Source of the DNA: a virus
Lineage: Duplodnaviria; Caudoviricetes
Virus record (IMG/VR): IMGVR_UViG_642918906_000001
Coordinates: 224,001 to 288,000 of that record
DNA: 64,000 nt
Direction: 5' to 3' (one strand)
Shown here: positions 62,653 to 63,742 of the stretch, in pieces
How the letters are laid out: every line of letters begins with the position of its first letter
Position numbering within the stretch: the stretch's first letter is position 1
The notes under the pieces: generated by a model
Told to the model about the DNA's origin: nothing
The model's database searches: none
Seen by the model: only the letters and a program-made list of their open reading frames with translations
Position numbers and translations under genes: made by a program

Positions 62653-63026
62653 AAACACAGACGCTAGTTATTGACCTGATTCGTAACTGGCTTCCGAACG
62701 CTACCACTGGTTTGTGGGCGAAGCACTCGATGGAGGGCTTCGATATCATCACAGTTCTGACTGAACCCGAGTACCCTGGATTGGAAAAGATTCAGGGGAA
62801 AGTCATTTGGGCAGAAGACGGTGTAATTGATGACAAGGCTAATGCTGAACGCAATCTGCTGATTCATCAGGTAGCCCGTAAGTTCGCCAAAGCCACTGAA
62901 ACGGTGCTCATTGGCGTCAGGCATGTTGATCGTATTACATACCTCGACTTCAAAGGTGAGTCTATCAAAAACGTTGAAGGGTTCGACTGGGTGGATGTCG
63001 TTCTAGAAAAAGAAATCATCGTTTAG
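62649..63026 (+). CDS. Hypothetical protein
   Basis: ATGA coupling. Confidence 0.8.
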   Translation: MKTQTLVIDLIRNWLPNATTGLWAKHSMEGFDIITVLTEPEYPGLEKIQGKVIWAEDGVIDDKANAERNLLIHQVARKFAKATETVLIGVRHVDRITYLDFKGESIKNVEGFDWVDVVLEKEIIV

Positions 63027-63029
63027 TAA

Positions 63030-63056
63030 AAGAATACTCAGTGTGTAATATTATAG
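63030..63056 (+). promoter_or_regulatory. Putative promoter of ncRNA-2
   Basis: AAGAATACTCAGTGTGTAATATTATAG, ungapped match to 4994-5020. Confidence 0.6.
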
Positions 63057-63525
63057 GAGTGAATGCTCCTAGCCCGTGATAAAAGCCTCGTAAAAGTGTT
63101 GCTTTCATTTCCCACCCCATCACGGGTTCCCCCTATTCAGGATCACTGCTCTGGTAGTGAACCAAATGAACAAGGGTGTTCGCAGGGGTTATCTCTCTAA
63201 CCAGGGTCCCCGTCACCATAAGCAGTAGGTTAGATGCCCTGCTCGAACACCCGCCTAAGCATAATGAACTTTCGGAATAATTCGCCCGTCCCCAAATAAG
63301 GTGGGATGGTTAGTTGGAGATGACCAGTCTCCTAAACCGAAGCACTGATCACTAGGGTGGTACCTATTCGATACAGTGAAGTTACTCGATCATATCGGTG
63401 TTACACCCCCGATCGAAGTGGCGACTGACAAAGTGATACTTCCTACTAAATGGGTTGTTCAGCTGGCCAGCACACATGCGTCAGATTAAACCTCAAGCCC
63501 CCACCCTCGTAGGTGGGGGCTTTAT
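63054..63525 (+). ncRNA. Candidate large structured ncRNA (~470 nt), family unknown
   Basis: Largest gap without a credible gene in the window; more than 10 nested helices; promoter-like motif at 5' end and terminator at 3' end. Confidence 0.75.
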
Positions 63526-63529
63526 TCCG
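63495..63529 (+). terminator. Rho-independent terminator
   Basis: AAGCCCCCACC-CTCGTA-GGTGGGGGCTT, TTTATTCCG. Confidence 0.9.
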
Positions 63530-63544
63530 TCTCAAGGAGAAACT

Positions 63545-63742
63545 ATGAGTTTGTACGATCAGTTGTTTAAGCTGTATATTACGGTGAAAGATCCGAAGGT
63601 TGTCCGGTATCGTCGACATCCATGTCAACTGCGTATTGTCGGCAAGGCCCGGCATATGTGGGGTAACGAAAGTAAACTCGATCCCGGTTCTCAAAGCACT
63701 GAAACGATTGAAAAACTCATCGCCCGTTATTACATCGATTAA
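63545..63742 (+). CDS. Small hypothetical protein (65 aa)
   Basis: AAGGAG RBS before ATG 63545 (the ORF-track extension to 63455 crosses the terminator). Confidence 0.75.
   Translation: MSLYDQLFKLYITVKDPKVVRYRRHPCQLRIVGKARHMWGNESKLDPGSQSTETIEKLIARYYID

Follow-up and report, generated by a model that had tools for sequence, protein, structure and literature searches.

A probable structured non-coding RNA gene with a conserved two-loop hairpin in nucleus-forming jumbo phages related to phiKZ

GOLLD and ROOL (Rfam families RF01998 and RF03087) are large, ornate non-coding RNAs (ncRNAs) of phages and prophages, often located near tRNA genes and endowed with conserved loops and tertiary contacts, and for both of them dimers or larger assemblies have been reported. 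RNAs C and D of phage T4 are small stable RNAs that lie in a tRNA cluster and are expressed with the tRNA genes, and the HK022 put RNA and the Bacillus EAR element are RNAs of processive antitermination. The present analysis concerns an intergenic element in a 64,000-nucleotide (nt) stretch (the window; positions 224,001 to 288,000 of the IMG/VR record IMGVR_UViG_642918906_000001, Caudoviricetes) of a 316,674-bp phage genome. The element is very probably the gene of a structured ncRNA of ~475 nt, encoded on the + strand, preceded by a middle promoter, followed by a generic terminator, and belonging to an uncatalogued family confined to the phiKZ/PhiPA3/PA1C/201phi2-1/Phabio clade of Pseudomonas jumbo phages. 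It resembles GOLLD and ROOL as a large, ornate phage-borne ncRNA with conserved loops and tertiary contacts, but is smaller, has another host range, a dispensable 3' domain and a minimal form of ~90 nt, and matches neither family in Rfam, whether at the gathering threshold or at E <= 10. The likeness to T4 RNAs C and D is one of description: the element lies ~13 kb from the tRNA-Leu gene of its genome and shares with it only the promoter type. With HK022 put, EAR and riboswitch leaders it has in common a structured RNA with conserved loops in an operon leader, with terminators after it; however, EAR and the riboswitch families are represented in Rfam and do not match it, the genes behind it vary among relatives, and a conserved alternative pairing is not seen by eye (no formal search was made).

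The nearest described RNAs come from the same phages, namely the ncRNA candidates of phiKZ and 201phi2-1 obtained by ONT-cappable-seq (Oxford Nanopore sequencing), differential RNA-seq and Grad-seq. As set out in the main texts of these studies (PMC10914365, PMC11512511, PMC8244752, PMC8545117), such candidates, like the present RNA, consist of a phage promoter, an untranslated RNA and an intrinsic terminator, after which a gene follows. The candidates named there lie at other loci (3'UTR_PHIKZ298, 5'UTR_p40, PHIKZ221, PHIKZ302, and sRNA005 before gp277/gp182), and the locus, fold and conservation reported here are not described in the accessible text. The small-RNA screen of 201phi2-1 is stated in the main text to have kept transcription units of < 250 bp (PMC11512511), so that a 475-nt RNA would be excluded. 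Both the 201phi2-1 RNA and the short form that precedes PHIKZ289 in phiKZ (263,17x-263,30x) may figure in the supplementary tables, which according to the main texts hold 17 phiKZ 5' untranslated region (5'UTR) candidates (Table S7) and 10 201phi2-1 transcription units devoid of coding sequences (CDSs). The locus is not mentioned in the accessible text of a jumbo-phage review and an antisense-oligomer paper (PMC12571901, PMC13282480), and a term search of a transposon-mutagenesis preprint (PMC12676376) for it gave no match. The RNA is a new family within a known kind of orphan jumbo-phage ncRNAs. phiKZ and 201phi2-1 are model nucleus-forming jumbo phages, whose proteins are being screened gene by gene, but whose ncRNAs so far amount to no more than lists of candidates. 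One RNA family is now defined, with a covariation-backed structure, a ~90-nt core bearing two invariant loops, and a modular long form with a tertiary contact; it is strictly conserved across the phiKZ, PhiPA3, PA1C, 201phi2-1 and Phabio clade, and turns an anonymous gap into a directly testable target.

The element occupies the gap 63027-63544, between an open reading frame (ORF) of 125 amino acids (aa) that ends at 63026 and a 65-aa ORF that starts at 63545. A preliminary description of the window, made from the sequence alone, had noted that this gap holds no credible ORF, and the ORFs that overlap it are indeed of 25-45 aa only, none of them conserved among the homologues. The folding energy is also better than expected, with a minimum free energy of -166.5 kcal/mol on the + strand compared with -144.1 +/- 6.9 for shuffled sequences (z = -3.24; none of 100 shuffles as good). 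The opposite strand folds about equally well (z = -3.08), and energy alone therefore does not choose the strand. The assignment of the RNA to the + strand instead follows from invariant U-G pairs, those of P5 and P7 among others, which would be C-A on the opposite strand. No catalogued family accounts for the element. Across the whole window, the 4227 models of Rfam 15, which include group I and II introns, RNase P, transfer-messenger RNA (tmRNA), signal recognition particle (SRP)/4.5S RNA, 6S RNA, GOLLD, ROOL, HEARO, riboswitches and self-cleaving ribozymes, gave no match at gathering thresholds, and ARAGORN found no tRNA or tmRNA gene, which agrees with the earlier failure to recognise a tmRNA, RNase P, SRP or group I/II intron core. 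A relaxed search of 62950-63600 at E <= 10 returned six matches with 14-17 bits, against thresholds of 40-55, all of them on the terminator hairpin (63489-63542). A likeness between the apical region and domain IV of 4.5S/SRP RNA was also considered, and was dropped for want of an Rfam match.

The RNA recurs, at one place, in a defined group of phages. A blastn search of 50,697 phage records with the full query matched only Viktualia, in which the ~150-nt core is 92.7% identical over 149 nt, above both the whole 801-nt query (75%) and a neighbouring protein (78.8% amino-acid identity). A search with the core only added a weak but real match in Phabio (E 0.7); its matches in Alishewanella and Acinetobacter phages are due to chance. 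In Phabio, the 165-nt gap is taken up entirely by a promoter-like motif of the same kind, a hairpin of ~90 nt and a terminator, and all three stacked helices of this hairpin differ in letters from those of the window while retaining their pairing. Pattern scans found the RNA in two further IMG/VR contigs and one metagenome contig. A covariance model of the core (R1) then gave syntenic intergenic matches in phiKZ (E 6.7e-7), PhiPA3 (E 0.019), PA1C, HPP-Temi and RVTF4, and a second model (R2) was built from its further matches. Both models were run on 20 IMG/VR loci that encode the 201phi2-1 gp423/phiKZ gp287 protein family, minus one (L033) that lies on the same contig as another (L003). Together they match every such locus that has downstream DNA, and the contigs of the two loci without it carry the RNA elsewhere (L097 and L039), so that 19 of 19 distinct IMG/VR contigs with a gp423/gp287 homologue carry the RNA. 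Its position in the relatives is always 1.4-3.3 kb downstream of this homologue, for which the PhiPA3 annotation itself cites 'gp423 Pseudomonas phage 201phi2-1'; these neighbouring proteins place the window with the phiKZ-like type and uphold the earlier view that it derives from a nucleus-forming phage. The GenBank lineages with the RNA are seven (Viktualia, Phabio, phiKZ, PhiPA3, PA1C, HPP-Temi and RVTF4), to which the metagenome contig is added. In the genome of the window, the R1 search finds a single copy.

Outside this clade, R2 matched none of eight distant chimalliviruses (Noxifer, KpLz-2_45, RAY, RP31, pTD1, phiRU, Miami and D3), under stricter filters that weak relatives could escape. 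R1 matched one of the eight (RAY, E 0.23), and this match was rejected since it lacks both loop motifs. Scans of IMG/VR with 15-16-mers mostly yielded chance matches (L005-L018, <= 15 bits with R1), and of the 69 stretches from a loose pattern scan 12 are real by R2, all on contigs that were already known.

Two forms of the RNA are found. The long form, with a 3' domain P5-P8 (Table 1), is present in the window, L003, Viktualia, L004, L022, L034, L097, PhiPA3, PA1C and HPP-Temi (L numbers are locus labels). The short form, of ~125-135 nt, comprises the core and the terminator and is present in Phabio, phiKZ, RVTF4, L041-L043 and L048-L051; in phiKZ and Phabio, P4 alone with its terminator makes up an RNA of ~130 nt. 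Although its RNA is short, Phabio has a 201-type core, which scores 101 bits with R1, and the 3' domain has therefore been lost or gained more than once. An uncultured relative (L039, 2411-2800) keeps the core while its 3' domain has diverged, with the halves of a CACTGG/CCAGTG palindrome set apart by a 21-nt loop.

Table 1. Coordinates of the RNA, its domains and its transcription signals in the window
Feature	Position	Strand	Details
Predicted phage promoter	63026-63056	+	A-rich block and TACT (63035-63038), then TGTAATATTATAG
Structured ncRNA gene (very probable)	63054-63527	+	~475 nt; single copy; promoter-to-terminator unit
P1, 5'-terminal hairpin	63054-63071	+	TAGGAG/CTCCTA
P2, long hairpin with variable loop	63072-63127	+	GCCCGTGAT/ATCACGGGT; 201-type long forms only
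Conserved single strand, then P3 hairpin	63132-63163	+	CCTATTCAGG; TCACTGC/GTAGTGA (63143/63160)
P4 core	63174-63257	+	universal to the family; matched by R1/R2 in every relative
P4 helix A	63174-81/63245-52	+	
P4 helix B	63182-87/63237-42	+	UC bulge
P4 internal loop		+	GUUAUCUC // UG; 8/2 asymmetric; RNYAUCUC // UG in the family
P4 helix C	63196-202/63228-34	+	
P4 mini-stem and apical loop	loop 63208-14	+	GGU/ACC; loop CCCCGUC
P4 3' tail		+	GCCUA directly after helix A; family form RCCUA
P5 three-way junction	63270-63342	+	P5 TTTCGG/CCGAAG; P5a 63286-63309; P5b 63316-63332, loop TGACCAG
P6 hairpin	63343-63378	+	loop GTGGTA
P7, closing a variable hairpin	63381-63422	+	GTTACT/AGTGGC
P8	63425-63484	+	CTGAC/GTCAG; encloses a variable hairpin and the palindromic hairpin GCT-GGCC-AGC (63462-63471)
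Intrinsic terminator	63496-63527	+	10-bp G+C hairpin (63496/63521), then CTTTATTCCG; -21.7 kcal/mol
65-aa ORF, 201phi2-1 gp425-like	63545-63742	+	starts 18 nt after the terminator tail

The part shared by the whole family is the irregular P4 hairpin of ~80-92 nt, whose helix B carries a 1-2-nt bulge on its 3' side (UC in the 201 type), and whose apical loop of 7-8 nt ends in CCCGUC. The ATCTC of the internal loop and the CCCGTC of the apical loop are present in 21 of 21 cores, while the helices around them change. In a plain MAFFT alignment of 12 phiKZ-type sequences, 93.1% of the cells are paired (shuffles 73.3 +/- 1.8, 0 of 500 as good; slid partners 35-49%), and 16 of the 20 core pairs have changed on both sides. 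The mini-stem appears as GGU/ACC, GCG/CGC, GGC/GCC, GCU/AGC and ACC/GGU. Within the RNA, the deletion of a base pair is matched on both strands (GGGTGTTCG/CGAACACCC versus GGGGTTCG/CGAACCCC). As judged from its presence in both forms, the core would be the indispensable part of the RNA. Its place as the conserved heart of the structure is one of three points absent from the preliminary description, the others being the P5b-P6 kiss as a tertiary contact and the leader-like layout of the locus, both treated below.

For the full-length RNA, a model of 81 pairs, compared across six 201-type sequences, is paired in 94.1% of its cells, and 19 pairs have changed on both sides (shuffles 6.8 +/- 2.0, 0 of 500 as good), with slid partners at 35-47%, a control that favours the model because its structure was derived from the window sequence. 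These compensatory changes, together with those of the core, sustain the earlier proposal of a multi-domain structured ncRNA. Two parts, P2 and the kissing loop, were read sequence by sequence and not counted by the pair tool, because MAFFT misplaces the P5b loop and the 3' strand of P2. On the 5' side, a terminal hairpin with different letters exists in Viktualia, L004, L022, PhiPA3 and HPP-Temi; the P2 stem has changed on both sides to CCCATGATC/GATCATGGG (L003 and Viktualia), CCCGTGAC/GTCACGGG (L022) and CCCGTGATC/GATCGCGGG (L034); and P3 (helix 2 of the model; nine pairs) is 96.3% paired, with three pairs changed on both sides. On the 3' side, P5 is invariant while P5a and P5b vary in letters yet pair, and P7 (helix 9; six pairs) is 97.2% paired, with two pairs changed on both sides and one invariant U-G. 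The palindromic hairpin inside P8 becomes CACTGGCCAGTG in PhiPA3 and AGCTGGCCAGCT in PA1C, with changed outer pairs, and AGCTGGCCGGCT in HPP-Temi, where it needs a U-G pair. The main helices named in the preliminary description are present where it had placed them. P1 to P3, P4a-c, P5, P5a, P5b, P6, P8 and the terminator hairpin are retained in relatives, most of them with compensatory changes; three others (AAAGC/GCTTT, TCGATC/GATCGA and GGTG/CACC) are specific to the window and lie in variable inserts. Of its two proposed long-range pairs neither is conserved: in TCCCACC (63110) with GGTGGGA (63300), one partner belongs to the P2 loop, which is variable, and the other to a strand of P5a, and the CCTACT (63442) counterpart of AGTAGG (63224) is absent from Viktualia, L004, L022 and L034.

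A different tertiary contact is conserved. Independent single-sequence folds of the P5 domain and P6 from nine long forms give one common layout, in which the P5b loop is complementary to the P6 loop in all nine; in the window, TGGT of P6 (63358-61) pairs with ACCA of the P5b loop (63323-26). The pairs are ACCA:UGGU in the window, L003 and Viktualia, UACCA:UGGUA in L004, UCCA:UGGA in L022, GCCA:UGGC in PhiPA3, and GCCAA:UUGGC in PA1C and HPP-Temi; for L034, AACC:GGUU is the pairing found by the script and AACCA:UGGUU our own reading. The fourth pair is thus A-U, U-A or G-C, and since it occurs in three states, P5b and P6 are considered to form a covarying kiss.

Two readings of the locus are given very little weight. 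That the conserved element acts not as an RNA, but through small proteins or at the DNA level, as an origin or as a palindrome to which a protein binds, is hardly tenable: both strands fold equally well, a DNA palindrome of 10-12 nt (CTGGCCAG) is present, and CDSs are annotated across the RNA in Viktualia and HPP-Temi, but no ORF is common to the homologues, the short forms of ~130 nt leave no room for one, indel lengths are not divisible by three (one indel being offset on the other side of a helix), changes preserve pairing rather than codons, the invariant U-G pairs and the U-G of the HPP-Temi palindrome work only in a + strand RNA, and a promoter and a terminator bracket the RNA in every genome. 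The annotated CDSs (Viktualia CDS0139 and CDS0140, L001 3460-3741 and 3821-3910; HPP-Temi CDS0041 and CDS0042, L031 8481-8606 and 8603-8698; all 'hypothetical protein') have no counterparts in other homologues and are therefore probably spurious gene calls. A self-cleaving or otherwise catalytic RNA is very improbable. The large ornate fold, the invariant loop nucleotides and the tertiary kissing contact would suit a ribozyme, but no Rfam 15 ribozyme family matches even at E <= 10, the short forms retain a single hairpin, and the context is not that of an intron, a mobile element or rolling-circle replication.

The transcription signals support the view, already put forward in the preliminary description, that the RNA forms its own transcription unit. 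Ahead of 20 of 20 homologues stands a motif in which an A-rich block with TAC(T) is separated by ~7 nt from letters that resemble TGYAATANTATAG. According to the main text of PMC8244752, middle promoters of phiKZ have TACT centred 22 nt upstream of the transcription start, with an A-rich repeat before it; from the fit to this description, transcription is predicted to start at ~63055-63059, and the RNA is presumed to be made by the phage's own non-virion RNA polymerase. At the other end, the strong terminator seen earlier after the last stem is present, and a G+C hairpin followed by UUUAU ends 19 of 20 homologues, the exception being L039, whose final hairpin lacks the U tract. The genome has 39 sites with the context TTTAT[GT][CT]CG, which in most cases comes immediately after an inverted repeat rich in G+C, and the terminator is therefore of the phage's ordinary type. 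A CCGTC after the terminator, considered as a second copy of the loop motif, was rejected as part of this generic context.

Elsewhere in the genome, a near-identical promoter with the same first transcribed bases occurs only before the tRNA-Leu gene, which is driven by a middle promoter according to the main text of PMC11512511. This tRNA lies outside the window in a ~210-nt unit (G000:C1 about 300,230-300,465, minus strand), which opens with a near-copy of the RNA's promoter and of its first ~35 transcribed bases (GTAAAAGAATAC-N7-TGTAATANTATA.GAG, a 5' hairpin, CCGTGATA), with a structured ~90-nt leader before the tRNA and the same type of terminator after it. Looser sites of the form A-rich + AATAC ... 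TAT(A/G)T(A/G) in G000:C1, at 310,913(-), 120,484(-), 184,388(+), 302,888(-), 301,159(-) and 19,901(-), probably represent further promoters of this class. A loose promoter pattern applied to phiKZ finds five sites as against five in a reversed control, and is uninformative.

The promoter and start shared with tRNA-Leu alone raise the question of a tRNA-like stable RNA. The substrates of RNase P include hairpins that end in a 3' RCCA tail, as well as the precursors of 4.5S RNA and of phage antisense RNAs. P4, with 11-14 bp in helices A and B and an RCCUA tail, might likewise be handled as a tRNA or 4.5S precursor (for example, by an RNase P cut at the foot of helix A), and would then mimic a tRNA or act as a decoy towards enzymes that target tRNAs, the anticodon nucleases of the host included. 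In most members, helix A is immediately followed by an RCCUA-like tail (GCCUA, ACCUA or CCCUA; ACUUA in PhiPA3). This reading is nevertheless quite unlikely, as the tail reads CCUA instead of CCA, the base that precedes helix A varies, the apical loop has neither a T-loop nor an anticodon-loop consensus, and ARAGORN reports nothing in the window.

Taken as a whole, the locus is best explained by a gene for a stable ncRNA whose core is read in trans and whose extra domains are accessory, an account that is held tentatively, at slightly less than an even chance; its specific functional claim, that the RNA acts in trans and offers its two invariant loops to a partner, whether protein or RNA, is advanced with slightly more reserve. 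In this proposal, the ~90-nt P4 hairpin would be the working part, its stacked helices holding AUCUC (in the 8/2 loop) and CCCGUC (at the apex) in a fixed geometry, and both loops would be recognised by a partner, be it a protein of the phage or the host or an RNA complementary to them, so that the RNA would serve as a scaffold, decoy or sponge. The long forms would add P1-P3 on the 5' side, and on the 3' side the compact P5-P8 domain, locked by the P5b:P6 kiss and bearing the palindromic hairpin. Because the short forms do without them, these domains are regarded as accessory, and they could stabilise the RNA, allow dimerisation or bind a second partner; terminator leak-through would supply the downstream genes. 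Action in trans is favoured by the invariance of the loops while the helices drift, by a promoter common to the RNA and tRNA-Leu, another stable RNA, and by downstream genes that are unrelated among relatives. In the long forms, moreover, the ~250 nt between core and terminator make a tightly coupled switch of aptamer and terminator less likely.

Several points weigh against this account. In 20 of 20 homologues, the next gene has the same orientation and begins within a few tens of bases of the terminator (the distance is 18 nt in the window and about 49 nt in phiKZ); a promoter motif is not seen in this interval, so that in physical terms the RNA forms the gene's 5' leader. In each of the 10 short forms, the core stands at a fixed distance of ~12 nt from the terminator, across a conserved linker (ACCUAUUUAUAG-like), a layout like that of an attenuator. 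In addition, neighbouring proteins belong to no RNA-related family in Pfam, PHROGs and PDB sequence searches, and no partner was identified among them; no public RNA run is listed as containing the stretch; and the full-length covariation rests on a structure taken from the window itself and on a 201-type set in which two of the six sequences are close.

The first two of these points speak for the principal rival explanation, less probable though far from negligible, in which the RNA is a cis-acting 5' leader of the downstream middle genes, and its core sets the read-through of the polymerase at the terminator, either as a conditional attenuator or riboswitch-like sensor, or as an RNA that modifies the polymerase for processive antitermination. 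The main texts of PMC11512511 and PMC10914365 also speak for this reading, as they describe many RNAs from premature termination in 5'UTRs in both phages (8 of 11 in 201phi2-1, 17 in phiKZ) and suspect antitermination in 201phi2-1. Furthermore, in L043 (CCCAGC), L050 (CUCUCC) and phiKZ (CUCCC), the CU-rich loop and helix C strand repeat the 5' strand of the terminator. However, terminator strands are generically C-rich and G-rich, this resemblance is confined to three of the 10 short forms, and no conserved antiterminator pairing is seen by eye (no formal search was made). The unrelated downstream genes offer no common regulon, the ~250 nt of independently folded RNA separates core from terminator in the long forms, the terminator is the generic type found at 39 similar sites, and the ornate 3' domain with its kissing loop exceeds the needs of a leader. 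Were the leader reading true, it would give the non-canonical RNA polymerase of the phage its first defined cis-regulatory RNA.

A bolder reading, considered doubtful, would make the RNA a subunit of a ribonucleoprotein specific to phiKZ-like nucleus-forming phages, a structural or regulatory machine of the middle phase that pairs with itself in the long forms. Here AUCUC and CCCGUC would be docking sites for a protein of phage or host origin, such as a component of the machinery for translation or RNA export (AUCUCC resembles the anti-Shine-Dalgarno end of 16S rRNA), and the palindromic GCUGGCCAGC hairpin together with the kissing-loop domain would pair the RNA into dimers or larger assemblies.

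Some short contigs in sequencing runs overlap the locus. Runs X1, X4 and X6, of uncertain RNA or DNA kind (two are labelled wastewater metatranscriptome), contain contigs of 166-217 nt from Viktualia-like relatives, which cover at most 63131-63275, the most conserved part (X6 only to 63235). Run X6 also contains a 12.4-kb contig of a more distant relative, which matches 63178-63217, and a contig of run X3 lies on 63561-63700, outside the RNA.

The genes that follow the RNA differ among relatives (the gp425-like 65-aa protein, the HslV-like gp289 of phiKZ, small membrane proteins and others) and form no functionally coherent set. The 65-aa ORF of the window lies so close behind the terminator tail that it is transcribable by read-through only; it belongs to no Pfam or PHROG family, and only L003, L004 and Phabio have a homologue of it behind the RNA, other genes taking this place in other relatives. 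In phiKZ, gp289 (L023 7755-8483) has a weak match to the PHROG 'peptidase HslV family' (E 1.3e-5) and starts with MT..., resembling an N-terminal-threonine hydrolase; ORFs of similar appearance, with similar N-termini, lie downstream in PhiPA3, where the protein has no PHROG match, and in PA1C, where the likeness was judged by eye. Small genes also come and go around the RNA, whose flanks are a hot spot for small-gene turnover. Viktualia has an inserted gene for a small hydrophobic protein (CDS0138, L001 3130-3378), which separates the gp424 homologue from the promoter of the RNA; L022 likewise has a membrane-like ORF ahead of the RNA (about 1100-1300), and in the short-form phages a small hydrophobic ORF often stands after the terminator.

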